A stretch of DNA of 64,000 bases from an uncultured virus (IMG/VR IMGVR_UViG_3300036770_005354) (IMGVR_UViG_3300036770_005354:1-64000); one strand, 5' to 3'. Shown: positions 11,295 through 62,225, numbered from the stretch's first letter. The notes: a model not told the origin generated them from the letters alone. Numbers and translations are program-made.

Positions 11295-11765
11295 ATGAAT
11301 ATAGTAAAAGAATATAAATTAAATGATACTGTTTGGATTTATGGCATATCATCAGGAAAAAATAGATTAACAAAAGGGAAAATAATTAAAATCCTCAACC
11401 TTGAAGAAGAAGGATACGATAAAAATCAAAAATTTTATATAATTTCAATCCCTACTGAAATTGAACCACTTCTTGAACTAAGAACATGGGAAACAATTAG
11501 TCAAGATGAATTTGGACCTGTTGGATGTTTAAGAGAAAATTTTGTTAATGCAGATGCAAATAACAAAAAAATAAGTCAAGCTGGATATACATATAGTCAA
11601 AATTATGACGTTAATGATGATGGTCCCAGTCCAGAAGAAATTATGGCAGCATTAGAAAATAGTGCAAGCAATCTAGTTCATCAAAACATTAATTTTAATA
11701 AAAAACCTGAATTTAAACCAAAATTCAAATCAAAGAAGAAAACATTTGTAAAAAATAAAATATGA
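11295..11765 (+). CDS. hypothetical protein
   Basis: ORF with a Lys-rich tail. Confidence 0.7.
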   Translation: MNIVKEYKLNDTVWIYGISSGKNRLTKGKIIKILNLEEEGYDKNQKFYIISIPTEIEPLLELRTWETISQDEFGPVGCLRENFVNADANNKKISQAGYTYSQNYDVNDDGPSPEEIMAALENSASNLVHQNINFNKKPEFKPKFKSKKKTFVKNKI

Positions 11766-11986
11766 ATATTTTTGGAAATAGACTCTTTATTAGAAAAAGT
11801 AATGAATTAGAAATAAGTGTTTTTTGTACAGATAGTAATATTTGGAATTGGATTGAAAACACAGTTAATAACAATTTTAATTTTAAATTAATAAACTCAA
11901 ATACCTTTCGATTTGAAAATGAAAACGAATTATCAAAGTTTTTAACTATTTTTAATTTAAAATGGGGACATAAATTAACAGGATAA
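11762..11986 (+). CDS. small protein, dispersed member of the F-x-L-K-W family
   Basis: C-terminal FRFENENELSKFLTIFNLKWG. Confidence 0.55.
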   Translation: MNIFGNRLFIRKSNELEISVFCTDSNIWNWIENTVNNNFNFKLINSNTFRFENENELSKFLTIFNLKWGHKLTG

Positions 11987-14850: not shown

Positions 14851-15243
14851 ATGATTATATTAACTTCTAATATAGATTATCCTTTAGAAAAAAATTCCCT
14901 TGAGGCTGATCTGAAAAATACCCCATGGATATGTAACAAAGTTAAATCTAGTTTTATATATTCACAAAATTTATATGCAGCGCTATGCAATAATGATTTT
15001 CTAAAATTAGATGTTTTAGACATTCTAAAAAACAAAATGTGGCACTGCTCATGGAGACATGCTGGTAGCATAATAGCAGACATCCATGAAGAAGGCGATT
15101 ACATGGATTGGTATTGTAGTGGTATGCATAATGAACAAGACATGAATGGAAGTATATATAATCACTATGTAAGTGAAGGTACTATAACAGAAGAAATAGA
15201 AAAAGATCTGAAGGCTATCAAATGGATTCCAGTCAAAGAATGA
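14851..15243 (+). CDS. conserved phage hypothetical protein
   Basis: QNLYAALCNN...SWRHAGSIIAD...GDYMDWYCSG. Confidence 0.75.
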   Translation: MIILTSNIDYPLEKNSLEADLKNTPWICNKVKSSFIYSQNLYAALCNNDFLKLDVLDILKNKMWHCSWRHAGSIIADIHEEGDYMDWYCSGMHNEQDMNGSIYNHYVSEGTITEEIEKDLKAIKWIPVKE

Positions 15244-15482
15244 AATCGATAAAAGTAAAAGAGAAAGATTGGATAAAAATTCTTGAAAAAATTAAAAAAG
15301 AATATCCACCAAGTTATTATCTGATACGGGCAAATTCAAGAGAAAAACTAGGTTTTACTCAGAGAACCAATATATATGACTATACGTATACTTGGTTAGA
15401 TTTCTATAATGAACATAAAAAAACACTATTTTTATTAAAATATGGTGATTTAATATCTTCAATTGATAGTGAAAATAGATAA
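15240..15482 (+). CDS. small protein, dispersed F-x-L-K-Y family member
   Basis: LDFYNEHKKTLFLLKYG. Confidence 0.65.
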   Translation: MKSIKVKEKDWIKILEKIKKEYPPSYYLIRANSREKLGFTQRTNIYDYTYTWLDFYNEHKKTLFLLKYGDLISSIDSENR

Positions 15483-16811: not shown

Positions 16812-17084
16812 ATGAACATTAATATTGATTTGTCAAAGTTCGATAATATCAAGCTTGAAGAAAAGTCCAACTTTATGAAAACCGGCAAATCCAAAAGTTG
16901 GCTCGGTGAATATCATTGGGTTAAAATTGAAAATACCGAAGATAAACAGCTAGACATTGAGAAAGCTAAAAAATGGTGTAATAAAAATTTCGGTTCATCA
17001 GCATCCGTGTGGTACGAGCATAAAAGTGTATTTTTCTTTAAAGAAGAAAAAAATATGACTATGTTTATTTTAAAATGGTCTTAA
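16812..17084 (+). CDS. small protein, dispersed F-x-L-K-W-S family member
   Basis: KWCNKNFG...W...FFFKEEKNMTMFILKWS. Confidence 0.75.
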   Translation: MNINIDLSKFDNIKLEEKSNFMKTGKSKSWLGEYHWVKIENTEDKQLDIEKAKKWCNKNFGSSASVWYEHKSVFFFKEEKNMTMFILKWS

Positions 17085-17926: not shown

Positions 17927-18508
17927 ATGTTAGTACCAATGGTAGTTGAAAAGACAAGTCAGGGAGAAAGAGCATTTGACATTTACAGCCGTTTATTGAA
18001 TGAAAGAATCGTTTTTCTGAATGGCCCAGTTAATGATCATAGTGCAAACTTAGTTATTGCACAAATTCTTCATCTTGAAAGTATGGATTCTAATAAAGAT
18101 ATTAATTTGTATATTAATAGTCCAGGAGGATCGGTAGTTTCAGGATTGGGAATTTTAGATGTAATGGATTTTGTAAAACCAGATATTGCAACATATGTTA
18201 TTGGACAAGCTGCTAGTATGGGATCACTACTTGCTTCATCCGGTAAAAAAGGAAAAAGATTTATGTTGCCACATTCACGACATTTAATTCATCAGCCTTT
18301 AGGTGGAGCAAGTGGTCAAGCATCCGACATGGAAATTCAGGTTAACGAAATTCTACGAATGAAAAAAGATTTAACTAATATCTATGTAAAAAATACGGGA
18401 AAATCTTTTAGTCAGTTGACTAAAGATATGGACCGTGATAATATCATGGACGCACAAGCTTCAATTAATTACGGATTAGCAGATAAAGTTATTGAAAAAA
18501 GGTCATAA
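17927..18508 (+). CDS. clpP: ATP-dependent Clp protease proteolytic subunit
   Basis: [18 protein letters not shown], catalytic QAASMG, IHQP, DRD. Confidence 0.95.
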
Positions 18509-18871: not shown

Positions 18872-18901
18872 ATAGCAGTAAATTTTTTACTGCTATTTTT
18901 T
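18872..18901 (+). terminator. possible intrinsic terminator
   Basis: ATAGCAGTAAA-TTT-TTTACTGCTAT followed by a T run; lies inside a possible 51-aa hydrophobic ORF (18851-19006). Confidence 0.5.
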
Positions 18902-19041: not shown

Positions 19042-19070
19042 TTGACAAGAAATAGTTGCAGTGTTAAAAT
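19042..19070 (+). promoter_or_regulatory. sigma70-type promoter heading the cassette array
   Basis: TTGACA-17-TAAAAT; -35 overlapped by inverted repeat GTCAAC-N6-GTTGAC (19029-19046). Confidence 0.8.
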
Positions 19071-19096
19071 GGTAGTACACTGTAAAAATTTCACGC

Positions 19097-19315
19097 ATGA
19101 CTACTGAAATAAAGTTAAAGCAAGCACTAACTTATCAACAAGAATGTTGGTTAGAGCATCATGTTGGTCCGATACTTTATTATCTTAATAATAAGTATGG
19201 TGGCCAACAATGGTCTGTCGTAAAAGTATATGAAGCTGAGTATCATCAGTTTATCAACTATCTAAAATTTACAGATGATCGTGTGGCTATGCTTTACATG
19301 TTGAGGTGGTCATGA
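19097..19315 (+). CDS. array ORF 1
   Basis: ends MLYMLRWS. Confidence 0.75.
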   Translation: MTTEIKLKQALTYQQECWLEHHVGPILYYLNNKYGGQQWSVVKVYEAEYHQFINYLKFTDDRVAMLYMLRWS

Positions 19316-19587
19316 AAAAAGACTGTATAGGTGATTTTGTTCAAGCATGGGGAGATTGGGATAATACTCGACCTCGTAGTCTCGCCCATAACTGGGACTC
19401 TAGATTTGCCGACGCAGGCTATTATCGTGTAAATGTATCTGTCGTCAATATAGAATATAATTGGCTTGACATAAACGAATGGTGTAAGGAACAATTCGGG
19501 AAAACACACTATTTTTGGTCAAGAATAGATACCGTTTGGTTTGAATCTGAAAAACACGCAACGTTGTTTATTTTGAGGTGGTTATGA
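19312..19587 (+). CDS. array ORF 2
   Basis: ends FESEKHATLFILRWL. Confidence 0.75.
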   Translation: MKKDCIGDFVQAWGDWDNTRPRSLAHNWDSRFADAGYYRVNVSVVNIEYNWLDINEWCKEQFGKTHYFWSRIDTVWFESEKHATLFILRWL

Positions 19588-19904
19588 ACCCGATTGATAA
19601 AATCACTATTGATGCTACAAATATAATTTGTGAAGAGATTGACAGAGCCGTAATATTTGACACAATAACAGAAGGCTGGCACAAAATGGAGATTACATTC
19701 GACAAAGATCGCTACCACGAACAGAAAGATATGGAAGAATGGTGCTATAACAACATAGGACCCGGTGGTTGGACTTACGGTACTCCTCTAACATGGAAAG
19801 GAATGGGTGACAATTTGTGGGTGGTGCATAACATATTTGGCAGTACTACTTTTGCCTTCAAGAACCCAAAGGATCTGACTTTGTTTATTTTGAGGTGGTC
19901 ATGA
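19584..19904 (+). CDS. array ORF 3
   Basis: ends FKNPKDLTLFILRWS. Confidence 0.75.
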   Translation: MNPIDKITIDATNIICEEIDRAVIFDTITEGWHKMEITFDKDRYHEQKDMEEWCYNNIGPGGWTYGTPLTWKGMGDNLWVVHNIFGSTTFAFKNPKDLTLFILRWS

Positions 19905-20065
19905 TGTTCAAAATCAATGTTGCGTATAGAGACATGTTCTGGGAATGGTGTCAGAATCAAAATATTGTTTGTGAATATATGGGAACTAATAGTTATAGTA
20001 AGTTTGATACCTGGTATATTGGCAATGAAAAAGATAAATTATTTGCCATATTGAGATGGACATGA
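19901..20065 (+). CDS. array ORF 4 (54 aa, absent from ORF track)
   Basis: MMFKINVAYRDMFWEWCQ...NEKDKLFAILRWT. Confidence 0.7.
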   Translation: MMFKINVAYRDMFWEWCQNQNIVCEYMGTNSYSKFDTWYIGNEKDKLFAILRWT

Positions 20066-20256
20066 GTTATACTTTTTGTTTTAGATATGATAAACATCCT
20101 TTCGTAGAAACACAAAAAATACTAGAATGGACAATAAAACATTGCTCAAGTTATATTACAAATGACGCATTTAAACACGAAAACGGTGAGTGGTACTATC
20201 GTTTTTATTTTTATGATAAAAAAGATTATATATTATTCATGTTAAAATGGGCATAA
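20062..20256 (+). CDS. array ORF 5
   Basis: ends FYDKKDYILFMLKWA. Confidence 0.75.
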   Translation: MSYTFCFRYDKHPFVETQKILEWTIKHCSSYITNDAFKHENGEWYYRFYFYDKKDYILFMLKWA

Positions 20257-20257
20257 A

Positions 20258-20629
20258 ATGAAAACTTCAATTTGGTATAATACTAAAGATAAACAACCTG
20301 ATACATCTGGATACTATCTCGGTTATAGAGGTTGGGGCGTTGGTGGAAAGGCTGACGGTGATCATGATTATAATTATTTTTATTATCATAAAAAAACTAA
20401 TGAGTGGTATACATACGAAAATCAAATTCGGGCCACGTTTCCCGATATCGCTATTGTTTATTACTGGACAGACGCAAACCCATATGCTTGGGTTAATAAT
20501 GATGTATTTAATAAGGCATTCAGACAAACTCATGAAACACAAAAAAATAATCCAGCATTAGAAATTGCTTGGAAAAGAGTAGAAGAAGCAATTCGTCAAT
20601 ATGAAATTATAAAAAGTATGGTGATATGA
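20258..20629 (+). CDS. hypothetical protein interrupting the array (non-member)
   Basis: lacks the LRW terminus; ends NPALEIAW...YEIIKSMVI. Confidence 0.7.
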   Translation: MKTSIWYNTKDKQPDTSGYYLGYRGWGVGGKADGDHDYNYFYYHKKTNEWYTYENQIRATFPDIAIVYYWTDANPYAWVNNDVFNKAFRQTHETQKNNPALEIAWKRVEEAIRQYEIIKSMVI

Positions 20630-20696
20630 GATCACTTAAAAAACAACTTTGGCCATATATGATTACTATATGTTATTTGTGCTGAGGTGGCCATGA
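20626..20696 (+). pseudogene. internally deleted array ORF relic
   Basis: MRSLKKQLWPY start joined out of frame to DYYMLFVLRWP* with an intact CTGAGGTGGCCATGA junction. Confidence 0.65.
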
Positions 20697-21013
20697 CTAT
20701 TACAGTACCAAAACTCAAAAAACATAAGCCTATCCTTGTGGCACCTTCTATCCGAATATATTATCCAAAACAATGGACTTGGCAGGATCATCTACAAGAG
20801 TTAGAACTACAATATAACAATTCGATTAGTACTTACAACACCCAAGAAATAACTATGAAGGACATGAAACATGTAAATGAAGTCATGCAGGCTCTGTATC
20901 CTGGACCATATCGTGTTGTAGAAAAGTATCTAACAGATAGAATGGTTTTTGGATTTAGTTTAGAATTTGACGATCCGCATGAAAAGATAATTTGGTTGTT
21001 GAAAAACTCATGA
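20693..21013 (+). CDS. array ORF 6
   Basis: ends FDDPHEKIIWLLKNS. Confidence 0.7.
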   Translation: MTITVPKLKKHKPILVAPSIRIYYPKQWTWQDHLQELELQYNNSISTYNTQEITMKDMKHVNEVMQALYPGPYRVVEKYLTDRMVFGFSLEFDDPHEKIIWLLKNS

Positions 21014-21189
21014 CTACAGTAACAATAAAATGTCCAATTACATGGTATGAACAATGCGATTGGATCTATGCTAATTGTAAAAATTGGGTAGATCGAACCT
21101 ACTGGGCAGATTGGCAGATTGGTCATGACGACATTTATTTTGAATTAGAAGATTGTGATGCTATAATGTTTTTGTTGAGGTGGTCATGA
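21010..21189 (+). CDS. array ORF 7
   Basis: ends DAIMFLLRWS. Confidence 0.75.
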   Translation: MTTVTIKCPITWYEQCDWIYANCKNWVDRTYWADWQIGHDDIYFELEDCDAIMFLLRWS

Positions 21190-21437
21190 CAGTAACTTAT
21201 AAACCAGTGCCTGGCTTTCCAGAAATCAAGACGCCGGTTCTTCATCTTGTAAAGTATACTGACGAATCAGAATTAACTGGTTTTTATCTGTATTCTCATA
21301 AGGATCTTTTAATAAGTGAATGGTTGAAGGAAAATTGTCAGGGCAATTACTATCATAGTCCAGATTATCTCCCTGAAAAGTTCATTCAATTTGAGGATGA
21401 TCATGATGCCTTATTGTTTGCGTTGAGGTGGTCATGA
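21186..21437 (+). CDS. array ORF 8
   Basis: ends FEDDHDALLFALRWS. Confidence 0.75.
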   Translation: MTVTYKPVPGFPEIKTPVLHLVKYTDESELTGFYLYSHKDLLISEWLKENCQGNYYHSPDYLPEKFIQFEDDHDALLFALRWS

Positions 21438-21706
21438 TCGTAAAAACAATAGAAGTGGAAAAAATTTACTCGTCCCTACACAAAAAAATTCTAAATTTTG
21501 GTGTAAATAATCTTCGTTATACTGGTGCTTTTGAAGCTACAGAGTATATTAAAAAGAATTTCCCAAGTGTTTCATATCCCGAATTGGGACCTGAAATGTT
21601 AGTATGGTGTGAAAAAAACTTTGGAAATGACTGGATTTGGAATTGGTCCACTATCTATTTCAAACATGAAAAAGATAAAATGTTATTTTTACTGAGATGG
21701 TCATGA
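21434..21706 (+). CDS. array ORF 9
   Basis: ends FKHEKDKMLFLLRWS. Confidence 0.75.
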   Translation: MIVKTIEVEKIYSSLHKKILNFGVNNLRYTGAFEATEYIKKNFPSVSYPELGPEMLVWCEKNFGNDWIWNWSTIYFKHEKDKMLFLLRWS

Positions 21707-21957
21707 TATTCCTAGATACCAATCCACTACATTACAATACTAGATTTTACTTCAAAGAAAATATCATGCCTAACTTACCAAACAATTTTGATGCGTGGTA
21801 CGAAGGTTATCGGTCATGGTTAGCCGAACAAGGTTGTGAAATCATTAAGCACGAACCTAAGTCACTAGGTGATGCATTAGGAGTTAGTACTGGTTATGAT
21901 TGGTTTGGATTTGTTAACGATCAAGATGCTACTTTGTTTTTGCTGAAGTGGTCATGA
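21703..21957 (+). CDS. array ORF 10
   Basis: ends FVNDQDATLFLLKWS. Confidence 0.75.
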   Translation: MIFLDTNPLHYNTRFYFKENIMPNLPNNFDAWYEGYRSWLAEQGCEIIKHEPKSLGDALGVSTGYDWFGFVNDQDATLFLLKWS

Positions 21958-22193
21958 AAACAGACAACGTAATTTCATTAAAAGGTGTTCAAATAAAGAA
22001 ATCACGATACTATCATGGTAGATATGAGTGTGGATTTTGGGGAAAGCATGGCAGAGAGATGAAACAATGGTTACGTGATACATTCGGCGAAAATGACGAT
22101 ATGATCTATGCCAGTAATGATGACCTAGAAAACAGTTATGATGCTATGATTAATAAAGAACAACTAACTATTCTATTATTGAAATGGTCATGA
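21954..22193 (+). CDS. array ORF 11
   Basis: ends EQLTILLLKWS. Confidence 0.75.
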   Translation: MKTDNVISLKGVQIKKSRYYHGRYECGFWGKHGREMKQWLRDTFGENDDMIYASNDDLENSYDAMINKEQLTILLLKWS

Positions 22194-22393
22194 AAAAATT
22201 ATTAATACAGTTCAACAAAACTACTTTTAACGAATTGATATCATGGTTTGAGTCTCTAGGACACCCTTGTTTAAGTATAGGTATAGTAGAGATCAGCGGC
22301 GCATATTGGAGAGTTAATATCATATATCAGCACTTTGAAGTTAAAATATCTGATGAAAAATTATATACGATGGTATGTTTGAGGTGGTCATGA
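22190..22393 (+). CDS. array ORF 12
   Basis: ends DEKLYTMVCLRWS. Confidence 0.75.
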   Translation: MKKLLIQFNKTTFNELISWFESLGHPCLSIGIVEISGAYWRVNIIYQHFEVKISDEKLYTMVCLRWS

Positions 22394-22587
22394 AAATTTA
22401 TCAACTTAGGGGTTATCCTAGAAATAATTATTTTGTTAAAGATTTTTCTGAGTTTTTAGAAATCATGAATTGGATGAAAGAAAATAAAGTAAAACACTTA
22501 CACGAATCTTCTAGCATTCATGGCTATGAATTTAGTGTAATACCATCTGGGCCTGGATATTCACTATTTGTCTTGAAGTGGTTATAA
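22390..22587 (+). CDS. array ORF 13
   Basis: ends YSLFVLKWL. Confidence 0.75.
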   Translation: MKIYQLRGYPRNNYFVKDFSEFLEIMNWMKENKVKHLHESSSIHGYEFSVIPSGPGYSLFVLKWL

Positions 22588-22985
22588 TGTTAAAACTAAT
22601 ACAAAAACGATATCTTGAATGGCGAGAACGTCGTTTTCTAGCAGCACATGGTTGCGAAACTAGAGAACAATACGATCACATGTACGATCTAGATATCAAT
22701 CGTCCTGCTAGTAGAGTAAAAGATTTTTATCGTGGGTATCCATATGTTTACTGTTTTGAAAATCGTGGCCACAATGTTTATTACTGGGATGTAGCAATAG
22801 ACGGAATATATGTGCTTAGTCAATGGTGTAAGGAAAACTGTACAGATAAATTTAGATTTGATTTCCATCGTGCATCAAGTACATCAAATGGATGGGAAAT
22901 AGATGAACTTGGTGGAGGAGATTATATTTTCTTCGCCTGTAAAAATCCAAAAGATTACACATTGTTTTTGTTGAGGTGGTCATGA
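22587..22985 (+). CDS. array ORF 14
   Basis: TAATG-coupled; ends KNPKDYTLFLLRWS. Confidence 0.75.
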   Translation: MLKLIQKRYLEWRERRFLAAHGCETREQYDHMYDLDINRPASRVKDFYRGYPYVYCFENRGHNVYYWDVAIDGIYVLSQWCKENCTDKFRFDFHRASSTSNGWEIDELGGGDYIFFACKNPKDYTLFLLRWS

Positions 22986-23188
22986 CAAATCTTATTGATG
23001 ATAATATGGTCTGGCGCGCTATCAATAAATGGGAAGAAAATGCTCCTATTAGTTTGTTACTTAATATTCATGCGCTTAAGGAACATATGGTTAAAGAATA
23101 CGGAATCCAATTGTCATCCGCTATTGGCGGGCGTATTGAAGTAGTTGATGAAAAAAAATATACAATGTTTATTTTGAGGTATTCATGA
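22982..23188 (+). CDS. array ORF 15
   Basis: ends VDEKKYTMFILRYS. Confidence 0.75.
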   Translation: MTNLIDDNMVWRAINKWEENAPISLLLNIHALKEHMVKEYGIQLSSAIGGRIEVVDEKKYTMFILRYS

Positions 23189-23598
23189 AACATATTGAAA
23201 AATCAAAATCAGTTAAATCATTTTTAAATCGTTATTACGGTTCCGTCAAATATGATAAGAGGATGTACGTGCATAACAATCCATCATTAGTTCCTAACAC
23301 CTACAATCCTTACGAAGATTATTTGTCTACCTACGCCATTACAAAGATTGACAGTGTTGAAGCAGTGGAGATTACCATGCCAATAGTGGAGTTTGAACAG
23401 TTGGCAGACGAACATGTTGATCTCGAAAATCTAAAGAATTTCACAGGACTAAACTCAGTTGAGATGATCATACATGACTATGGGCAATTAAGAGAACTAT
23501 ATTTTGTGAATTTAAACGAAAAACGTATTAGAGACAGTAACGAATCTGTACGAAAAGCATATGAACATTATAAAACATTGCTAAATTTAGCAAAATAA
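23185..23598 (+). CDS. hypothetical protein
   Basis: ends NESVRKAYEHYKTLLNL. Confidence 0.7.
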   Translation: MKHIEKSKSVKSFLNRYYGSVKYDKRMYVHNNPSLVPNTYNPYEDYLSTYAITKIDSVEAVEITMPIVEFEQLADEHVDLENLKNFTGLNSVEMIIHDYGQLRELYFVNLNEKRIRDSNESVRKAYEHYKTLLNLAK

Positions 23599-24184: not shown

Positions 24185-24569
24185 TGCAGCGGCTTGGAGT
24201 TTTATTAGTCCTGTCCCATTTAATATGTATATAAAAAAACATGATGCTCATATAACATATTGGAATGGTGTTGCAATGACACAAACATGTGCTAGAATGA
24301 TAGTAGGCACATTATGGCTTAATATATATTATGCAGAAACTACTAAAATATCAGCATTTCGAGAATATAATAAAATTTATCGGGCAGGTGTTTTCAATAC
24401 AAGAGCATGGGATTATATTATAGATGAAAAATCATCAGATAATATGGTTAATATGTTTATTAAATTTATTAATAAAAAAGATGCAGATTTTTTTCTTAAA
24501 TTAATAGAAAAATATAGTCCACAAGAAACACTTGAATGGTTTTTACCTTCAAAAGAATATGTATGCTAG
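24177..24569 (+). CDS. hypothetical protein
   Basis: 130-aa ORF overlapping both neighbours. Confidence 0.65.
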   Translation: MHDAAAWSFISPVPFNMYIKKHDAHITYWNGVAMTQTCARMIVGTLWLNIYYAETTKISAFREYNKIYRAGVFNTRAWDYIIDEKSSDNMVNMFIKFINKKDADFFLKLIEKYSPQETLEWFLPSKEYVC

Positions 24570-24799
24570 ACAAATTTCCTCATAAATCAATTTTAAAAGC
24601 TATGTCTGCATCTAAAATGCTAGATATAGTTAATGAATTGAAACTTACAGGTTTAGTAGTTGACAAAGATTTCAGTTTCGCTTATACTCCATCTTCGTCT
24701 TATTATATGTATGGCCTCAAGAGTGGAACTGAATCACATGTAACTTTTTCTTTTAGTGAAGGAAAAAAACTTACTTGGTTTATTCTAAAGTATTCATAA
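24563..24799 (+). CDS. small protein, dispersed F-x-L-K-Y-S family member
   Basis: FSFSEGKKLTWFILKYS. Confidence 0.7.
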   Translation: MLDKFPHKSILKAMSASKMLDIVNELKLTGLVVDKDFSFAYTPSSSYYMYGLKSGTESHVTFSFSEGKKLTWFILKYS

Positions 24800-24815: not shown

Positions 24816-25841
24816 ATGATCAAACGTATTGGATTTGCTTGCAAATGGATTGATAACCCCAATCAAACTGATGGAATTAAATCATCAGATGATTGTAAAA
24901 AATACAATACTGGTACTACTACAGTAGCATGGCTTAATAGACAATCTAAGTCTAAGGCAGAAGAAAAATTATGGGATTTGATGAAAGGTAACATCGAATC
25001 TGTTAAAAAACTTGTAACCCGTGTTGGAAATTTAAATCAACACCTTAGAATGGTCCGCCTCTCAAGTGATATTTTACCTGTATACACTGAATCTAATTGG
25101 CGGTATTTTTGGAAGCTCCCTGACGTACAACAATATGCGGAAAGACATTTTGCTGAAGTCGGGCGCATTGCCCGTGATCGTAATGTTAGACTGTCTTTCC
25201 ATCCAGGTCAGTTTACTGTTCTTGCTAGTGATAATCCTGATATTGTAAATAAGAGTATAGAGGAGTTTGAGTATCATGCAGATATGGCCCGGTGGATGGG
25301 GTTTGGTAAACAATTTCAAGACATCAAGATCAACGTGCACATCTCGGGTAAAGAAGGTCCAGAAGGTATCAGGAGAGCCTATAAAAGACTCTCACCAGAA
25401 GCCCGTAATTCAATCACCATTGAAAATGAAGAAAACTCATGGGGATTAGATGAATGCCTAACACTAGGCGATCTACTGCCCATTGTTTTAGATATACATC
25501 ATAATTATTGTCGTGAAGGAGAATATATTTCATCAAATGATCCGCGTATCAAAATGATTATTAATAGTTGGCGTGGTTTACGGCCTGTTATGCATTATAG
25601 CCAATCCAGAGAAGAATTTCTTTCTGATCATCCAACCGACATACTTCCCTCCCGTGATGTGCTAATTGATAGAGGCATCAATAAACAAAAATTAAGAGCC
25701 CATAGTGATTACATGCATAATCTTGCTATGAACTTATGGGCCAAAACACATTGGGAATGGGCAGACGTAATGGTAGAGGCAAAGGCTAAAAATCTAGCAA
25801 GTTTCAAATTGTTTGAGTATTGGGAAAGCCTCAAAATGTAA
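24816..25841 (+). CDS. uvsE: UV-damage endonuclease (UvsE/UvdE)
   Basis: RIGFACK, RLSFHPGQF, INVH, IENEE, LDIHH, RAHSD, MVEAKAK. Confidence 0.9.
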   Translation: MIKRIGFACKWIDNPNQTDGIKSSDDCKKYNTGTTTVAWLNRQSKSKAEEKLWDLMKGNIESVKKLVTRVGNLNQHLRMVRLSSDILPVYTESNWRYFWKLPDVQQYAERHFAEVGRIARDRNVRLSFHPGQFTVLASDNPDIVNKSIEEFEYHADMARWMGFGKQFQDIKINVHISGKEGPEGIRRAYKRLSPEARNSITIENEENSWGLDECLTLGDLLPIVLDIHHNYCREGEYISSNDPRIKMIINSWRGLRPVMHYSQSREEFLSDHPTDILPSRDVLIDRGINKQKLRAHSDYMHNLAMNLWAKTHWEWADVMVEAKAKNLASFKLFEYWESLKM

Positions 25842-26459
25842 TTTAGGATTTTTCTTTATAGAACAAACCGTTGATGTAGAGAATTCTGTAGATTTAGAGA
25901 TATTGCGAATAGATTCACCTGCATTCAATAGTTTAAAAAGTAAAATTAAGTTATCTATTTTGTTTTTATTCTTTGTTTGGATAATTAATATTTTTCTTGA
26001 ATCGAGACATGGTATTTTTTTCCCATACATCCCATTTTTTGGGCCTTGCTTTGCCAAAGAAAGATTATTACACCATTCTTCTGTTCTAGGTATTCCTTTA
26101 AGACTGTTGCTACGTTTAGATAAAGTTTCTTTTGTAGGTTTCCAGCCTATTTTAGAAGGGGGTTTAAATCCTCCTTTTGCAGCATTCCATGCTATATTTT
26201 TATTTGGACGAAATTCTTCTTCTAGTAGATAACAAGACTCTTCAGTACCTTGATATAATAAAGTTTGAACAAGAATATTAGAATATTTTTGTAAAATTCG
26301 GGTGAAAAATGGATTTTTCTCGTTCATGAATTTTGTAACATTGAGATGTTCTCTAAATCTACGTTTTGGGTTGTTAGAAACACCTATATACCCCTGAGAA
26401 TAATGGTCGTTATGTTCTGGTAAATGTATCCAATAAACGTAATGTGTATAAATAGTCAT
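25794..26459 (-). CDS. free-standing GIY-YIG homing endonuclease with NUMOD3-like and HTH segments
   Basis: YVYWI...GYIGVS...RRFREH; KQGPKNGMYGKK; SIRNISK...STSTV. Confidence 0.85.
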   Translation of the reverse strand: MTIYTHYVYWIHLPEHNDHYSQGYIGVSNNPKRRFREHLNVTKFMNEKNPFFTRILQKYSNILVQTLLYQGTEESCYLLEEEFRPNKNIAWNAAKGGFKPPSKIGWKPTKETLSKRSNSLKGIPRTEEWCNNLSLAKQGPKNGMYGKKIPCLDSRKILIIQTKNKNKIDNLILLFKLLNAGESIRNISKSTEFSTSTVCSIKKNPKLHFEAFPILKQFETC

Positions 26460-29703: not shown

Positions 29704-32700
29704 ATGACAACAAGAGCCCCATTATCGCAAGTTCTACAAGATCCAGGTTTAACCAATCCAACTGAAGGAGAAACCCTTTTTATTGTTGCAGATTCTGGAG
29801 TTGAACAAAAACTAACGGTTTCACGCGCCAGATTATTGTTAGATACAGTTGGTCCTGCTGGTCCACAAGGTATCCAAGGAAGTCAGGGAGTCCAAGGAGC
29901 ACAAGGGGTTCAAGGTCATCAAGGAGTTCAAGGCCATCAAGGAGTTCAAGGAGAAACTGGATCAAGTGGAGGACCGGGTTCACAGGGTGTTCAAGGGGCA
30001 CAAGGTGTTCAGGGAACACAAGGCGTACAAGGAGCACAAGGTGTTCAGGGAACATCGGGTGTACAAGGAACACAAGGCGTACAAGGAGCACAAGGTGTTC
30101 AAGGTTCTCAAGGTGTAGCTGGGGTACAAGGATCACAAGGTCCAACGGCTACAGTATTTCCAAATATTCAAGGTGGTTCGCAAGGCTCCATTCCAATACA
30201 AGTAGATACTGATGTAACTGCATTCATTAATATAGGTCCACAAAATTATATATTAAAATCAGAAGGTAATACTGCTACATGGGTGTCAACTTCTACGATT
30301 TTTGTTGGAAGAGCAGATAAATCAGACAAATCATTTATAACTTCTTCGGATAATATTTCAGAATATTATCCAACAATGGCTATTGGAATCAATGATTATG
30401 TAACCCCAGTCTCAGATTCTTCTTTAATATTTCAAAGCGATTCAAAAACATTATTAACACCCATATTAAAAGTAACAACTTCAACCAATGCAATAAGTAC
30501 TACTACTGGAGGATTAATTGTAACAGGTGGGGTTGGTATAGGCAAAGATATCCATATAGGTGGAGACATCTATAAAAATGGAGAGCTATACGTCGTAGGT
30601 GGTGGTTCCGGAACACAAGGTGCGCAAGGATTCCAAGGAACACAGGGGCATCAAGGACTTGAAGGAGCACAAGGTTTACCTGCCGAAACAGGAATACAAG
30701 GAGCGCAAGGCTTCCAAGGAGCACAAGGATTTCAAGGAACACAGGGTATAGGTGGTGGACCTGGATCAGATGGAATTCAAGGTGCGCAAGGTTTTCAAGG
30801 GGCGCAAGGATTTCGAGGTGCAACTGGCATTCAAGGGGATCAAGGTTTAGCAGGAATTCAAGGGGCACAAGGATTCCAAGGTACACAAGGGGCTGGGGGA
30901 CAAGGACCACAGGGCGCACAAGGTTTAGAAGGTTTTCAGGGACATCAAGGATTCCAAGGAAATCAAGGATCACAGGGAGAATTAGGATTTACTGGTATTC
31001 AAGGCGCACAAGGATTCCAAGGAAATCAAGGTCATCAGGGATTTCAGGGAACACAAGGTGTAGAAGGTATTCAAGGAGCGCAAGGATTCCAAGGACATCA
31101 GGGATTCCAAGGAGCACAAGGAATAGAAGGCATTCAAGGGGCGCAAGGATTCCAAGGAAATCAAGGCCACCAAGGATTCCAAGGAACACAAGGTGCTGGA
31201 GGCGAAGGACCACAAGGCGCACAAGGAGTAGATGGAGTTCAAGGAGCACAAGGATTCCAAGGACATCAAGGTCATCAGGGTTTCCAAGGAACACAAGGAC
31301 ATGATGGTATTCAAGGAGCACAAGGATTCCAAGGAGCACAGGGATTCCAAGGAGCACAAGGATTCCAAGGTCATGATGGAATCCAAGGAGCACAAGGATT
31401 CCAAGGAACACAGGGCGCTGGAGGACAGGGAGCGCAAGGATTCCAAGGACATCAAGGTTTCCAAGGGACACAAGGATTCCAAGGACATCAAGGTTTTCAA
31501 GGACATCAAGGTTTTCAAGGACATCAAGGTTTCCAAGGGGCGCAAGGATTTCAAGGAAACCAAGGCTTCCAAGGACACCAAGGCTTCCAAGGACATGATG
31601 GAATTCAAGGAGCACAAGGATTTCAAGGAACTCAGGGTGCTGGGGGCGATGGGCCACAAGGCGCACAAGGTTTTCAAGGTCACCAAGGATTCCAAGGTCA
31701 CCAAGGTTTTCAAGGAACTCAGGGTCATCAAGGTTTCCAAGGTCATCAAGGTTTCCAAGGAGCACAAGGACTTAGAGGTGCACCCGGGTTACAAGGTGCT
31801 CAAGGTTTTAATGGCGTACAAGGATCACAAGGTTTTCAAGGAAATCAAGGACATCAGGGATTCCAAGGTGCACAGGGATTCCAAGGAACACAAGGTGCAC
31901 CGAGCGAAGGAGGATTCCAAGGTGCACAGGGATTCCAAGGACATCAAGGATTCCAAGGAAATCAGGGTTTCCAAGGAGCACAAGGATTCCAAGGAACACA
32001 AGGTGCTGGTGGCGAAGGCCCACAAGGCGCACAGGGATTCCAGGGACACCAAGGTTTCCAAGGAAATCAAGGACATCAGGGTTTTCAAGGATCAACTGGA
32101 ATTCAAGGACAACAAGGTATATTAGGAGGAGATGGTCCACCAGGATTACAAGGTGCACAGGGTTCACGTGGATTACCAGGATTTCAAGGAAGTCAAGGAG
32201 CACAAGGATTCCAAGGAACTCAAGGTGATAGTGGGGTAGGCGTTCAAGGTGTTCAGGGTGCAGAAGGGTTCCAAGGAAGTCAAGGAGCACAAGGATTCCA
32301 AGGAGCCGAAGGTAGTCAAGGCCCATCGGGATCAGGGGCACAAGGTCCAGCAGGTTTTCAAGGAAGTCAGGGCGCAGAGGGACTTCAAGGAGCACAAGGC
32401 CCACGTGGATTTCAGGGAAATCAAGGTCATCAAGGATTCCAAGGAAATCAAGGTCATCAAGGATTTCAGGGTGATCGTGGGGCACAAGGATTCCAGGGAC
32501 ATCAAGGATTCCAAGGAAATCAAGGATTCCAAGGGGCACAGGGTCATCAAGGATTTAGAGGACCACAAGGATTACAAGGTCCAGAAGGATTGCAAGGAAG
32601 CCAAGGACATCAAGGATTCCAAGGACGACAGGGACATCAAGGGTTTCAAGGAGCAACCGGCGCAGAAGGTATCCAAGGAGCACAAGGGTTCACTGGTTCT

Positions 32701-33240
32701 GGTTCACCAGGTTCCCCAGGTTCCCAAGGAGCACAGGGATTCCAAGGAGCACAAGGATTCCAAGGACCATCAGGTGCACAAGGACCAAACGGCGCACCAG
32801 GAATACCAGGAACCGCTGGTTCATCTGGACAAGTATTATATAATAGCGGTGGAACTGTAACAAGTTCTTCAAATTTACAATTCAATGGATCAGACCTATA
32901 TGCATCAGGTGAGATTCGAGCAGGTGGAGACATAGTTGCATATTATTCATCAGATAAGAGATTAAAAACCAATATAGAAACAATTTCAAATGCAAAAGAA
33001 AAAATAAAACAAATTTCCGGAATTTTATATAATTGGAATCAGTATGCTGTAAATAAAGATACAAGAACTAGGCAAGCAGGTGTAATTGCCCAAGAAATAG
33101 TTAATGTGTTGCCAGAAGCAGTTATTACAAGAACTGATGGTTACTTAGCAGTTAATTATGAGCAAATAATACCTTTATTAATAGAAGCATTAAAAACATT
33201 AATAAATGAAGTTGAAAATTTAAAAAATAAATCGGAGTAA
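29704..33240 (+). CDS. collagen-like tail/head fibre with C-terminal intramolecular chaperone (peptidase S74-like)
   Basis: long G-X-Q runs; SSDKRLKTNI...YNWN...GVIAQEI..VLPEAV...VNYEQIIPLLIEALK. Confidence 0.9.
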   Translation: MTTRAPLSQVLQDPGLTNPTEGETLFIVADSGVEQKLTVSRARLLLDTVGPAGPQGIQGSQGVQGAQGVQGHQGVQGHQGVQGETGSSGGPGSQGVQGAQGVQGTQGVQGAQGVQGTSGVQGTQGVQGAQGVQGSQGVAGVQGSQGPTATVFPNIQGGSQGSIPIQVDTDVTAFINIGPQNYILKSEGNTATWVSTSTIFVGRADKSDKSFITSSDNISEYYPTMAIGINDYVTPVSDSSLIFQSDSKTLLTPILKVTTSTNAISTTTGGLIVTGGVGIGKDIHIGGDIYKNGELYVVGGGSGTQGAQGFQGTQGHQGLEGAQGLPAETGIQGAQGFQGAQGFQGTQGIGGGPGSDGIQGAQGFQGAQGFRGATGIQGDQGLAGIQGAQGFQGTQGAGGQGPQGAQGLEGFQGHQGFQGNQGSQGELGFTGIQGAQGFQGNQGHQGFQGTQGVEGIQGAQGFQGHQGFQGAQGIEGIQGAQGFQGNQGHQGFQGTQGAGGEGPQGAQGVDGVQGAQGFQGHQGHQGFQGTQGHDGIQGAQGFQGAQGFQGAQGFQGHDGIQGAQGFQGTQGAGGQGAQGFQGHQGFQGTQGFQGHQGFQGHQGFQGHQGFQGAQGFQGNQGFQGHQGFQGHDGIQGAQGFQGTQGAGGDGPQGAQGFQGHQGFQGHQGFQGTQGHQGFQGHQGFQGAQGLRGAPGLQGAQGFNGVQGSQGFQGNQGHQGFQGAQGFQGTQGAPSEGGFQGAQGFQGHQGFQGNQGFQGAQGFQGTQGAGGEGPQGAQGFQGHQGFQGNQGHQGFQGSTGIQGQQGILGGDGPPGLQGAQGSRGLPGFQGSQGAQGFQGTQGDSGVGVQGVQGAEGFQGSQGAQGFQGAEGSQGPSGSGAQGPAGFQGSQGAEGLQGAQGPRGFQGNQGHQGFQGNQGHQGFQGDRGAQGFQGHQGFQGNQGFQGAQGHQGFRGPQGLQGPEGLQGSQGHQGFQGRQGHQGFQGATGAEGIQGAQGFTGSGSPGSPGSQGAQGFQGAQGFQGPSGAQGPNGAPGIPGTAGSSGQVLYNSGGTVTSSSNLQFNGSDLYASGEIRAGGDIVAYYSSDKRLKTNIETISNAKEKIKQISGILYNWNQYAVNKDTRTRQAGVIAQEIVNVLPEAVITRTDGYLAVNYEQIIPLLIEALKTLINEVENLKNKSE
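30610..32829 (+). repeat. 9-nt periodic Gly-X-Gln coding repeat (shorter block at about 29851-30144)
   Basis: caaggattccaaggagcacaagga-type units repeated over about 2.2 kb. Confidence 0.95.
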
Positions 33241-42157: not shown

Positions 42158-44404
42158 ATGATAGATACTGATAAAGATTTAGAAGAAATTTTTGAAAATG
42201 CAATAATGATTGCTATAAAAAATAAGCATGAATATATTACGTTGGAACATTTTCTTTTAAGTATAGTATCAAATGAAGAATTCTGTTCACTTTTAACTGA
42301 TTTTGGAACAGACGTCGAGGTTTTAAAAGATGATATTCAACACTATATTGAGTATGATTTAAAAGATATTATAAACCCCGATATTAATAAACCTAAAAAA
42401 ACAAACGTTTTAGATAAGGTTATCAATAGAGCATTCACCAATGTTCTACTAGTTGGTAAGCATATTATCGAGCCCATAGACTGTTTTTTAAGTATTTTAT
42501 CAGAAAAAAATACTCACGCTGTATATTTGCTTAAAAAAGCAAATATTGATAAAGAAAAATTCTTAAAATTCTTGAATAAAGAAGATAAGTCCAATAAATC
42601 TTCAAATAATAGTACTAAATATGAAAATATTATTAATCAATTTTGTACTAATTTAAATGAAAAAGCAAAAAATAAAAATATTGATCCAGTAGTTGGACGT
42701 GATAAAGAAATCGAAGATATTGAACTGATTCTAGCTAGAAGAGTTAAATCAAATGCTATTTTAGTAGGTGACCCCGGAGTTGGAAAAACTGCGATTGCTG
42801 AAGGGCTAGCTAAAAAAATCGTGGATAAGTCAGTTCCAAAATTTTTAGAAAACTATACTATCTACAATTTAGATATTAGTGCAATGTTAGCTGGATCTAA
42901 ATATCGTGGAGATTTTGAAGAAAGACTGAAAGCAGTAATTAATGCCTCTGAAAAATTAGGTAATTGCATATTATTCATTGATGAAGCCCATATGATGAAC
43001 GGCGCTGGCACTAGTAATGGTGGAAGCAATGATATGAGCAATATGCTAAAATCTGCCTTATCTAAAGGTAATATCAAGGTAATTGCAAGTACCACATGGG
43101 AAGAGTATAGGAAATTCTTTGAAAAAGATAGAGCATTAATGCGACGTTTTCATAAAGTTGTAATTGATGAACCTTCAGAAGAAGATACTGTAAAAATCCT
43201 AAAAGGGTTGAAAAAGTACTATGAAAAACATCATGGTGTAAAAATCACAAATCAAGCAATTGTTGATGCTGTAAAATATAGTATCAAATATATTACTGAT
43301 AAAAAACTACCAGACAAGGCAATTGACTTAATTGATTGTGCATGTGCTAGATTTAAACTCAATAATTCATCAGAAAAAACAGTAGACCATGACCAAATTA
43401 TTTTTGAAGTTTCAAAAATGGTAAAGATGCCTATTGAAAATCTAAATGAAAAAGAGAGTAAAAATCTTCAAAATTTAGAAAAGCATATGAAGCAAAGCGT
43501 TTTTGGACAAGAAAAGTCCATCGATGTTTTATTAGATAAAATATTTATTGCTCAAGCTGGACTTAAAAATGGAAATAAACCAGTAGGAAACTTCTTGTTC
43601 GTAGGACCAACTGGAGTCGGAAAAACTGAAGTTGCAAAACAATTATCAATCAATATGGGCACAAAGCTTGTCAGATTTGATATGAGTGAATTTCAAGAAA
43701 AACATAGTGTCAGTAAATTCATTGGTAGCCCACCGGGATATATTGGGTTTGATGATAATGCTGGTCAACTGGTTACAAGCCTACAAGAAAATCCAAATGG
43801 TATTTTTCTTTTTGACGAAATTGAAAAAGCGCACCCAGATGTCTTTACAGTTTTGCTTCAGCTAATGGATAATGCAGTAATTACTGGAAGTAATGGTAAA
43901 AAGGCAGATGGTAAAAATGCTATAATTATCATGACTAGTAATTTAGGTGCAGCTGATGCAGAAAAAAATAGTGTTGGATTTGGAAATATCGAAAGAGATT
44001 TTGACCCCACTAATGCAGTAAATACTTTCTTTGCACCAGAATTTAGAAATAGATTAGATGGTGTAATTAAATTTAATAAATTAGACCAAGAATCCATGAC
44101 AAAGATCGTCAAGAAATTTATTGATGAAATTAATAGTTTGATGAAAGATAAAAATATATCTATCAAAATTCTACCAGAAGCAATTAAATTCTTGATTAAT
44201 AAAGGTTTTGACAGTAAAATGGGTGCTAGACCACTACAGAGAACTATTGATGAATTTATTAAAAAGCCTCTAAGTAAAGAAATTCTTTTTGGTAAACTTA
44301 AAAATGGTGGAACAGTTGAAGTTAATGCATCAAATGATGAAATAATTTTTGATTATATTAAGCTGGTACAGCCTAAAACAGATATTGCTTTAGAAAAAGT
44401 ATAA
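42158..44404 (+). CDS. clpA: ClpA-like Hsp100 ATPase
   Basis: N-domain HEYITLEH, GDPGVGKT, FIDEAH, GPTGVGKT, FDMSEF, DEIEKAH, VGF loop, GARPL. Confidence 0.92.
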   Translation: MIDTDKDLEEIFENAIMIAIKNKHEYITLEHFLLSIVSNEEFCSLLTDFGTDVEVLKDDIQHYIEYDLKDIINPDINKPKKTNVLDKVINRAFTNVLLVGKHIIEPIDCFLSILSEKNTHAVYLLKKANIDKEKFLKFLNKEDKSNKSSNNSTKYENIINQFCTNLNEKAKNKNIDPVVGRDKEIEDIELILARRVKSNAILVGDPGVGKTAIAEGLAKKIVDKSVPKFLENYTIYNLDISAMLAGSKYRGDFEERLKAVINASEKLGNCILFIDEAHMMNGAGTSNGGSNDMSNMLKSALSKGNIKVIASTTWEEYRKFFEKDRALMRRFHKVVIDEPSEEDTVKILKGLKKYYEKHHGVKITNQAIVDAVKYSIKYITDKKLPDKAIDLIDCACARFKLNNSSEKTVDHDQIIFEVSKMVKMPIENLNEKESKNLQNLEKHMKQSVFGQEKSIDVLLDKIFIAQAGLKNGNKPVGNFLFVGPTGVGKTEVAKQLSINMGTKLVRFDMSEFQEKHSVSKFIGSPPGYIGFDDNAGQLVTSLQENPNGIFLFDEIEKAHPDVFTVLLQLMDNAVITGSNGKKADGKNAIIIMTSNLGAADAEKNSVGFGNIERDFDPTNAVNTFFAPEFRNRLDGVIKFNKLDQESMTKIVKKFIDEINSLMKDKNISIKILPEAIKFLINKGFDSKMGARPLQRTIDEFIKKPLSKEILFGKLKNGGTVEVNASNDEIIFDYIKLVQPKTDIALEKV

Positions 44405-60687: not shown

Positions 60688-61941
60688 ATGACAGCTAAAA
60701 ATACTAGTACAAAGCAATCAAAAGATGATTGGTCAAAGAAGCAATTTTCAAATTCTGAAAAAAACAAGCTTGTTGAAAAGCTAACAACTGCACGTGTTGG
60801 TCTGCTATTAAAGCATCCATTTTTTGGTAATATGGCAACTCGTCTAACTTTAGTAGACGCCAGTGATTGGTGCACAACTTTAGCAACTGATGGTAGAAAA
60901 TTTTATTACAACAACGGTTTTGTTGACAAACTTAGTGCTAAAGAATGTGAGTTTGGATTTGCCCACGAAGTTCTACACAATGTATTTGATCATCTAGGAA
61001 GAAAAGAATCCCGTGATGCTATGTTAAGTAATGTAGCAGCAGATTATGCGGTAAATCAAATATTGGTTGATGAAAAGATTGGTGCTGTACCGAAATTCTT
61101 AAAAATTTTTCAAGATAACAAGTATCGCGATAAAAGTTTTGAAGAAATTTACGATGAACTTTTTTCAAAAGCAAAAAAGATTAATATTCAAGACCTAGGT
61201 GATATGTTTGATGAACATCTTGACGGAGATGATGGAAATGGTGATGAAAATAATGACCAGAATAATCCAAAAAAACCCCGTCTAACTAAAGAGGAAAGAG
61301 ATGCCATTCGTGAAGAAATTAAAGAAGCAATGATTTCTTCTGCACAAAGTGTAGGTGCTGGTAAAATTCCAGCAGGAATTCAAAGAATGATCAAGGATTT
61401 CACTGAACCAAAAATGGATTGGAGAGAATTACTTAGAATGAACATTCAAAGTATTCTAAAAAGCAATTTTAGTTTCAGTAGACCGAATAGAAAAAGTCAA
61501 CATAGTGGAGCAATTTTACCAGGTCTACTAAATGAAGATACAATTGATGTAAGTATCGCCATTGACATGAGTGGAAGTATTAGTGACACACAAGCCAAAG
61601 ATTTCCTATCTGAAATTAAAGGAATCATGGATGAATATCAAGATTTTAAAATTAAACTTTGGTGTTTTGATACCGCAGTCTATAACTATGAAACTTTTAC
61701 TTCCGATAATGCTGACGAAATTTTGTCTTATAAAGTAAAAGGCGGTGGTGGAACTGCATTTGAAGCTAACTGGAAATTTATGCAAGAGAATGATATTCAA
61801 CCCAAGAAATTTATTATGTTCACTGATGGATATCCGGGTGGAAGTTGGGGTGATGAGGATTATTGTGATACATTGTTTATTATCCACGGAAATGATTCTA
61901 TTGTTCCACCATTTGGCGAACATGCATATTATGATGAGTAA
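60688..61941 (+). CDS. HExxH metallopeptidase-like + VWA domain protein (DUF2201-like)
   Basis: ATDG, HEVLH, DMSGS (MIDAS), GGGT, FTDG. Confidence 0.9.
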   Translation: MTAKNTSTKQSKDDWSKKQFSNSEKNKLVEKLTTARVGLLLKHPFFGNMATRLTLVDASDWCTTLATDGRKFYYNNGFVDKLSAKECEFGFAHEVLHNVFDHLGRKESRDAMLSNVAADYAVNQILVDEKIGAVPKFLKIFQDNKYRDKSFEEIYDELFSKAKKINIQDLGDMFDEHLDGDDGNGDENNDQNNPKKPRLTKEERDAIREEIKEAMISSAQSVGAGKIPAGIQRMIKDFTEPKMDWRELLRMNIQSILKSNFSFSRPNRKSQHSGAILPGLLNEDTIDVSIAIDMSGSISDTQAKDFLSEIKGIMDEYQDFKIKLWCFDTAVYNYETFTSDNADEILSYKVKGGGGTAFEANWKFMQENDIQPKKFIMFTDGYPGGSWGDEDYCDTLFIIHGNDSIVPPFGEHAYYDE

Positions 61942-61943
61942 TC

Positions 61944-62225
61944 ATGTCATTGGCTAATGGAACAATTAATCCATTGAATGTGTTGGGTATAAGAAAAATA
62001 AATTTTATGCCCGACACTTTTCATAAAATTCAGATGCCAGAAAACTATATAACTACTGAATTTTTAGAACACTGGATTGAATATAACTTAAATAGTAGGT
62101 ATTCAATTACACGAATAACCGTATTAGATACATATGGTTTGTGCGAAAAAGTAGTAGTTGGATTCGAAGATGAAAAAGATTTAACAGTTTTTTGTATATC
62201 ATATCCAAATTTTTTGAAAGGCTAA
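61944..62225 (+). CDS. hypothetical protein
   Basis: NPLNVLG.R...WIE.NL..RY...VGFEDEKDLTVF. Confidence 0.7.
   Translation: MSLANGTINPLNVLGIRKINFMPDTFHKIQMPENYITTEFLEHWIEYNLNSRYSITRITVLDTYGLCEKVVVGFEDEKDLTVFCISYPNFLKG

Follow-up and report, generated by a model that had tools for sequence, protein, structure and literature searches.

A promoter-led array of diverged paralogues in an uncultured, probably giant T4-like phage and its likely turnover by recombination at a shared coding tail

The window analyzed here is the first 64 kb (64,000 nucleotides) of a 75,859-base virus record of IMG/VR (IMGVR_UViG_3300036770_005354), with a G+C content of about 30%. On its plus strand, between 19097 and 23188, lies an array of 15 open reading frames (ORFs) of 54-132 residues that end in the tail F..(D/E).D...F.L(R/K)W(S/T/A/L), together with one unrelated ORF and one tail-only relic. 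A first-pass annotation of the sequence had described 15 such ORFs behind one consensus promoter, and all 15 were found again where it had placed them. Thirteen of the 15 stops are TGA codons that overlap the ATG of the next gene (ATGA), the other two being a TAATG (22587) and a TAAAATG (20256). The 15-mer TTGAGGTGGTCATGA occurs without mismatch at six of the junctions, those closing the units called here cassettes A, C, H, I, N and P.

All units are on the plus strand. Cassette A (19097..19315, 72 residues, ...MLRWS) is the first family gene, is recognized by a profile hidden Markov model (HMM) of the family with an E value of 6e-8, and has orthologues that are the first genes of the arrays in three related contigs (L002, L003 and L072; relatives are designated by L numbers). 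It is followed by cassette B (19312..19587, 91 residues, ...ILRWL, ATGA overlap), 57% identical to L003 9541-9813, by cassette C (19584..19904, 106 residues, ...ILRWS, HMM E 4e-18), by cassette D (19901..20065, 54 residues, ...ILRWT), which belongs to cluster [6], common to L145, L148, L150 and L151, and by cassette E (20062..20256, 64 residues, ...MLKWA, alternative ATG at 20056), which has a TAA stop with the next ATG 2 nt on. That ATG opens the unrelated 123-residue gene (20258..20629), which has neither the tail motif nor a family match. The tail-only relic comes next (20640..20696), 18 codons reading KTTLAIYDYYMLFVLRWP before a stop and ending in ...DYYMLFVLRWP.

In the second half of the array, cassette G (20693..21013, 106 residues, ATGA overlap) has the divergent tail ...LLKNS and is not recognized by the family HMM; its type, cluster (3), lies within the arrays of L145, L146, L148 and L150. 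Cassettes H (21010..21189, 59 residues) and I (21186..21437, 83 residues) share 92% and 94% DNA identity, respectively, with L143. Cassette K (21434..21706, 90 residues, ...LLRWS), the one whose fold was predicted, is 80% identical to L072 2740-3015, and cassette L (21703..21957, 84 residues, ...LLKWS) is 73% identical to L072 3012-3266. Cassettes M (21954..22193, 79 residues, ...LLKWS), N (22190..22393, 67 residues, ...CLRWS) and O (22390..22587, 65 residues, ...VLKWL, TAATG overlap) have both the HMM match and the tail motif. Cassette P (22587..22985, 132 residues) has orthologues that are 46-76% identical in L002-L006 and 40-94% identical in 13 further metagenome loci, and its counterpart in L142 is identical. 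The last unit, cassette Q (22982..23188, 68 residues, ...ILRYS), overlaps by ATGA a non-family gene at 23185-23598. The contig L001 has TAG in place of TGG at its position 656 (window 21639, codon 69 of cassette K), a nonsense change and the sole difference from the window in 11,999 bases, and ends inside the array at window 20984.

The head promoter (19042..19070, plus strand) reads TTGACA-17-TAAAAT with a TG before the -10 element and scores 11/12 against the consensus. It is one of three 11/12 sites in the 14 kb scanned and the only one within the array, where weaker consensus matches are also present. The -35 hexamer and the sequence TGTTAnAAT are invariant in the window, L002, L003, L072 and L143, the spacers having otherwise diverged, and the promoter was kept even though the first cassette shares no more than 45-48% identity with those of L002, L003 and L072. 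About 150 nt upstream of the promoter, a match to the consensus of a terminator, a hairpin with an 11-pair stem (3 GC pairs) and a run of T, is found at 18872..18896 on the plus strand, and no terminator-like site was seen on the plus strand of 19097-23188. The array would then be read as a single polycistronic early transcript from the head promoter.

Allowing up to two mismatches, the junction 15-mer has 13 copies, all of them on the plus strand in the array, against 0.12 expected and with none of 100 shuffles reaching 13. One of the 13 (20682-20696) is the end of the tail-only relic and closes no full gene. Mean pairwise DNA identity among the 15 tails climbs over the last ~40 nt from a background of ~0.28 to 0.87 for the final 6 nt up to the end of the stop codon, and is 0.30 directly after the stop. 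Two longer identities reported in the first-pass annotation are exact, namely the 25 nt at 21167-21191 in cassette H that recur at 22963-22987 and the 19 nt shared before 19587 and 19904. The same letters can be read as a translation signal: GAGGTG is made of the G of TTG, the AGG and the following TG, with GAGG ending 5 nt and GAGGTG 3 nt before the ATG, so that stop and start overlap with a Shine-Dalgarno sequence lying inside the preceding gene. Ribosomes would be handed over from gene to gene along the array.

The codons used at the tail bear on this double reading. Leu at position -4 is TTG in 12 of 15 array tails compared with 13% of Leu codons genome-wide (binomial 7e-9), Arg at -3 is AGG in 8 of 10 compared with 6% (binomial 7e-9), and Ser at -1 is TCA in 11 of 11 compared with 30% (binomial 2e-6). 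Two dispersed family members in the window with no overlapping downstream start use TTA/CTA, AAA/AAG, TCT/TCA and TAA instead. The first, ending in ILKWS, lies at 16812..17084 (plus strand, non-Shine-Dalgarno codons, TAA stop, HMM E 3e-16) and the second, ending in ILKYS encoded by CTA AAG TAT TCA TAA, at 24536..24799 (plus strand, HMM E 3e-5), where the E values of dispersed members were computed within the ORFs of this genome with an HMM that contains window sequences. The earlier observation that AGG prevails at the junctions and other codons in isolated members was thus confirmed.

The census was extended with the family HMM to IMG/VR loci, where, among the matches listed, 479 ORFs were found, 470 of them ending within 2 residues of the domain. 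These 470 comprised 354 with an ATGA or GTGA overlap, 42 with TAATG, 30 with an ATG within 12 nt and 44 with none. ATGA-coupled members used AGG 111 times and AGA 23 times, and the 74 uncoupled ones used AGG 11, AGA 12 and AAA 17 times, in a codon census that omits 147 ORFs obtained through the exact 15-mer. Synonymous codon choice at the tail follows coupling, not protein. TTG is also about twice as frequent at Leu -5 and -7 as in gene bodies, whether or not the member is coupled; this excess is not explained by the Shine-Dalgarno sequence and might reflect tail exchange. The tail-only relic retains CTGAGGTGGCCATGA, that is, the Shine-Dalgarno sequence and the ATG for cassette G, indicating that the joint can outlive its protein. 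The coupling-specific codons and the relic that still serves cassette G support the earlier proposal that each gene carries the translation signal of the next. Since a conserved protein motif encodes the coupling sequence, almost all junctions have it, which makes it a dispersed repeat.

Relatives of the array were used to follow its content. Cassette P as a query detected six viral and 14 metagenome loci with relatives, and a scan of IMG/VR with the 15-mer returned at least 135 stretches, in which 155 of 185 unique matches were family tails by HMM among the matches listed. Between the contigs L002 and L003, whose flanks share 97-99% identity, the array differs by insertions or deletions (indels) of 852, 615 and 295 bp, corresponding to 4, 2 and 1 cassettes. 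At each of these, the shorter contig matches the left copy as far as the tail and switches there to the right copy, with 15, 37 and ~5-9 shared bases at the switch points. Two more array indels, of 563 and 443 bp, separate L084 from L089. Together, in these two near-identical contig pairs, five of five array indels comprise whole cassettes; their crossovers fall in the junction repeat, where 5-37 nt are shared, and leave a chimeric tail. L002 and L003 differ by at least two further indels outside the array; relative to L003, L002 has outside the array a 1.9-kb insertion (540-2455) with three ORFs of 259, 57 and 332 residues.

A second line of evidence came from cassettes H and I, which are adjacent in the window and have three other cassettes between them in L143. 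For I, the similarity to L143 ends on either side at ...GAGGTGGTCATGA, and for H it ends there on the right. The flanks of L143 are 97% identical to those of L003, and none of the window flanks reaches 85% identity to this clade, the downstream UV-endonuclease being 69% identical as a protein. Likewise, orthologues of K and L of the window are found in L072 between the first cassette of its clade and a 104-residue cassette.

Cassette order differs among the 16 arrays compared. Within one clade, each of six contigs has an arrangement of its own between P and the downstream gene, with three end adjacencies each present in two contigs ([7]-(4) in L072 and L155, [25]-(4) in L002 and L153, and [45]-(4) in L003 and L143). 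The order in the L145-L150 group is not colinear, and L148 has four cassette types twice. The largest array has 31 members in 10 kb (L146), and five records of 239-338 kb contain 15, 7, 6, 35 and 0 copies of the family. Over 20 sequences, 197 of 273 distinct homology end points inside arrays, which are not independent events, lay within 30 nt of a family stop, compared with 46 +/- 6 for random placement. Gain, loss and reordering with breakpoints in the junction was the check that the first-pass annotation had set beforehand, and the five indels, the H/I arrangement in L143 and the scrambled orders all agree with it.

The proteins themselves form a family. Their bodies, called dissimilar in the first-pass annotation, do have variable N-terminal parts, but the alignments show that they are homologous over ~45 residues, with a conserved Trp, a W(C/L)..N.G-like segment and a strand-strand-helix tail. 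The shared C-terminal domain is alpha-beta-beta-alpha (helix, hairpin, helix) and ends in ...F.L(R/K)WS. Full-length identity to the first aligned member is 16-32% among the paralogues of the window, and 14 of the 15 array members are positive with the HMM, which includes them. A profile of 17 window domains matched 975 clusters (50% identity) at E<=1e-3 among 1.84 billion proteins, none below 1e-10, and the 30 outside proteins inspected have 50-141 residues with the domain at the extreme C-terminus. An AlphaFold2 model of cassette K based on 143 sequences had a mean pLDDT of 76, with residues 51-90 at 90-96; it places a helix at 53-63, strands at 67-70 and 73-76 and a helix at 79-89, and the F, L and W of the tail sit in this confidently modelled last helix. 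The ratio of non-synonymous to synonymous substitution rates (dN/dS) was 0.16-0.42 in eight of eight orthologous cassette pairs, and the cassettes are therefore taken to be coding genes under moderate constraint.

Searches for a function returned little. Neither Pfam nor PHROGs gave a match at E<=0.01 for 19 ORFs (the 17 family members and those at 20258-20629 and 23185-23598). For 27 outside members searched at E<=1, the same databases gave scattered sub-threshold rows and one N-terminal fragment of Gp23 in P0009. Foldseek with the cassette K model found nothing in the PDB at E<=0.001, and BFVD returned uncharacterized proteins of uncultured phages only (best E 0.024). Three candidates were rejected: the single PADLOC row (E 0.056) and the best profile match to PDB sequences (Skp1, E 0.1) were taken as noise, and the best hit of the VIA wide fold search (Z 5.1) was under the stated background. 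The source annotation calls all family members 'hypothetical protein', and the Atlas has them in unnamed viral clusters only. Nothing on the family or the architecture was found in the literature searched, which does not prove it unpublished. As a tentative guess, which draws no support from any of these Pfam, PHROGs, PADLOC, PDB or fold searches, the proteins may be a diversifying set of early host-interaction or counter-defence factors on a common scaffold.

Some outside members have unusual compositions. In P0009 (104 residues), as in 13% of one Atlas cluster, ~28 N-terminal residues match the N-terminal part of T4 Gp23 (PF07068, E 3e-6), and the protein looks like a chimera of a capsid-gene fragment and the family domain. 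Four others (P0004, P0006, P0120 and P0140) are two-domain proteins with two family tails in one chain, as would result from a fusion of neighboring cassettes through loss of the stop between them.

Taken together, these data make it likely that the locus is a head-to-tail array of diverged paralogues whose members turn over rapidly, within and between lineages, by integrase-free recombination at a coding joint. In this model, the last codons and stop, TTG AGG TGG TCA TGA, encode the end of the last helix and at the same time form the Shine-Dalgarno sequence (GAGGTG) before the overlapping ATG. One head promoter would give one long mRNA, along which ribosomes would pass from gene to gene. With the final 15-40 nt common to all units, homologous or short-homology recombination between two tails can remove, add, duplicate or move whole genes, and the comparison of relatives shows that after each event the hybrid tail is intact, the frame stays open and the next gene keeps a working start. 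Exchange would be carried out by RecA/UvsX-type enzymes of the phage itself, or would result from replication slippage, and not from an integrase. Still more tentatively than for the function of the proteins, we suggest that the tail is kept as a portable joint with three roles in one (helix end, ribosome-binding site with start, and recombination site), in which case the N-terminal halves would be the payload and the domain partly a carrier.

Several points weigh against this proposal. The consensus promoter stands on its 11/12 score and its conservation in five of five aligned genomes, but the promoter scan overall was not above shuffles (83 sites vs 82.2) and two other sites score as high. 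Transcription, coupling and expression are read from sequence, the family HMM was built partly from the window's own sequences, and the loci of the codon census were obtained via the junction motif, so that its members are not independent of ascertainment. All relatives are metagenome assemblies, in which repeats can mislead assemblers. One crossover, the 295-bp event, used ~5-9 shared bases and is closer to illegitimate recombination. Abutting genes would place end points near stops under any gene-level turnover, and the 197 of 273 is in itself no proof; homology-driven exchange is proven only by the five base-level crossovers and the H/I edges, not by the end-point count. Finally, three findings had been named in advance as speaking against exchange at the junction. 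Gene order is not fixed in relatives and breakpoints are not outside the junction, but the third applies, as the DNA identity of the junction needs nothing beyond the protein motif, the Shine-Dalgarno sequence and ATGA.

In one rival reading, the tail would be kept for a protein reason only, for example because it closes the fold or serves as a C-terminal signal for docking or degradation, and boundaries would fall there merely because the genes abut, with no elevated recombination. The tail is indeed conserved as protein in the listed members of the 975 clusters, its F, L and W are placed by the model in the last helix, and a phage-encoded ClpP and Clp-type ATPase would fit a degron, although a link between these and the C-terminal tail is pure speculation. 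However, the synonymous codons track coupling, the relic persists without a protein body, and all five indel crossovers fall in shared tail DNA and leave hybrid tails. Moreover, weak dispersed members run past the tail: one at 15222..15482 (or, as a longer ORF, 15177-15482; plus strand, HMM E 1e-4) continues ~11 residues beyond it (...LFLLKYGDLISSIDSENR), and two others, at 11759-11986 and 61938-62225 (HMM E 2e-4 and 6e-3), extend several residues beyond the usual domain end. We therefore regard a purely protein-based explanation as unlikely.

A strict site-specific system, with a recombinase elsewhere in the genome and circles excised and inserted at the junction, is very unlikely. It would agree with the putative single head promoter, with cassettes that would lack promoters of their own and with their cassette-precise gain, loss and reordering. 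No integrase (no PF00589), resolvase or RecA gene was found in the 76-kb record, as the first-pass annotation had noted for an integrase; the record is only ~21% complete, which makes this a weak negative and leaves room for a recombinase outside it. Against the system stand, besides the lack of a tyrosine integrase or resolvase in the record, five large array-bearing records (two of them estimated to be 92% and 97% complete), none of which has an integrase; four of the five have a RecA-family gene of ~360 residues. The crossover also varies within the 5-37 nt of shared sequence with no fixed point, and none of five junctions folded gave a stable or shared hairpin (z -1.68 to +0.91 vs shuffles).

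The array was recovered in four of four sequencing runs in contigs of a few hundred bases, with the flanks in kilobase contigs; the run contigs have many joints and loose ends at junctions, but with sides of 18-43 letters, on the repeat. That the differences among relatives are assembly artefacts, from contigs collapsed or mis-joined at 15-37 nt repeats, is hardly credible even with these short contigs and with L001 stopping inside the array, as three end adjacencies each recur in two separate contigs, open frames and overlaps are intact in all variant arrays, shared cassettes carry real substitutions (dN/dS <1), and the longest k-mers of assemblers usually exceed these repeats. In three runs (X4, X5 and X6), contigs over window 19188-22468 that were ~10% divergent from the window, and of higher depth than its own phage, covered only some cassettes (A/B, L and N), which suggests that relatives with a partly overlapping set of cassettes occur together with this phage.

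The proposed exchange at a coding joint can be compared with known systems, among which PeSL cassettes are the closest, although their defining features are absent in the array. The PeSL (promoter-early stem-loop) of T4-type phages is an intergenic motif of ~100 bp with a sigma-70-type promoter and a terminator stem-loop, for which mini-circles were demonstrated (Arbiol et al. 2010, PMC2839356; Comeau et al. 2014, PMC4122927). In both systems, short conserved repeats separate small non-essential genes in the variable parts of T4-like genomes, indels between close relatives have their ends within the repeat and the copy that remains is chimeric (five of five here), each cassette has an expression signal for itself or its neighbor, and no dedicated recombinase is needed. 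The location also agrees, since the array is a variable region of small genes with T4-like replication and RNA ligase genes nearby. The array repeat differs in being coding (the last 5-12 codons) and in carrying translation signals rather than transcription signals, and it joins paralogues, unlike PeSLs, which join unrelated ORFans. At the array boundaries, coding junctions leave no intergenic space for a promoter each, and no stem-loop terminator was found. For the mosaic joints of lambdoid phages, short conserved boundary sequences acted on by general recombination enzymes have been proposed (summarized in PMC3029335). Homologous recombination at short conserved sequences between modules is common to both, the difference being that almost every array gene has a joint, and has it as part of the gene.

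Among coupled operons, the array is ordinary in that 13 of its 15 stops overlap the next start with the Shine-Dalgarno sequence inside the upstream gene, and it differs by having the same coupling sequence at nearly every junction; the ATGA overlap of stop and start is a usual form of translational coupling. In integrons, a single promoter precedes cassettes that have none of their own, and the IntI integrase, acting on attC hairpins, inserts, removes and reorders these at a boundary sequence common to them. The first-pass annotation had called the array integron-like. This holds for its behavior, with cassettes turned over at a recurring boundary behind a putative head promoter, but not for its machinery, as there is neither an IntI integrase nor an attC hairpin, the crossover is variable, the boundary lies in coding sequence and the cassettes belong to one family. 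In the 'genomic accordions' of poxviruses, tandem paralogues expand and contract by unequal crossing-over. The array resembles these as a set of homologous members whose copy number and content change by recombination between repeats, with duplicated cassettes in L148; in contrast, its members are old and strongly diverged, DNA identity is restricted to the tail, and cassettes move between lineages.

The record is ~21% complete by CheckV, corresponding to a genome of roughly 300-400 kb. The neighbors of the array include a T4-type clamp loader, a family B DNA polymerase, an RNA ligase, ClpP and a Clp-type ATPase, as well as a collagen-like tail fibre and homing endonucleases. The array probably belongs to an uncultured giant T4-like phage, in a variable and presumably early region of its genome. 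No match to the array DNA (blastn) or to the proteins P, P0013 and P0021 (tblastn) was found in the phage genome collection searched, and the 398-residue gene upstream of the array had no relatives in the viral contigs.

Other features of the window were recorded. The ClpP-like protease (17927-18508) has head maturation protease as its best PHROG name, and the Clp-type ATPase (42158-44404, 748 residues) matches phrog_4871 at E 9e-247. A homing-endonuclease-like ORF (25794-26459, minus strand, phrog_314) overlaps the 3' end of the UV-endonuclease-like gene (24816-25841), and L002 and L003 have a different opposite-strand ORF at that site. The collagen-like tail fibre (29704-33240, 1178 residues) contains many internal DNA repeats and has a G+C content of 0.46 compared with ~0.30.

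The array offers a sequence-level mechanism by which giant phages may turn over small genes without breaking their expression. The PeSL idea, which concerns transcription signals in spacers, is thereby extended to translation signals that lie within genes, and the array indicates that a motif conserved in proteins can act at the same time as a dispersed repeat for recombination. It also defines a large family (975 clusters, up to 31-35 copies per locus or genome) that has no match in Pfam, PHROGs or the phage collection searched, and whose arrays the 15-mer detects with high specificity. Should the proteins act in counter-defence or host takeover, such arrays would be ready-made catalogues of their variants. 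And if the tail does combine helix end, translation signal and recombination site, it would allow exchange across lineages that is always in frame and free of integrase, making it a coding counterpart of attC sites and PeSLs.

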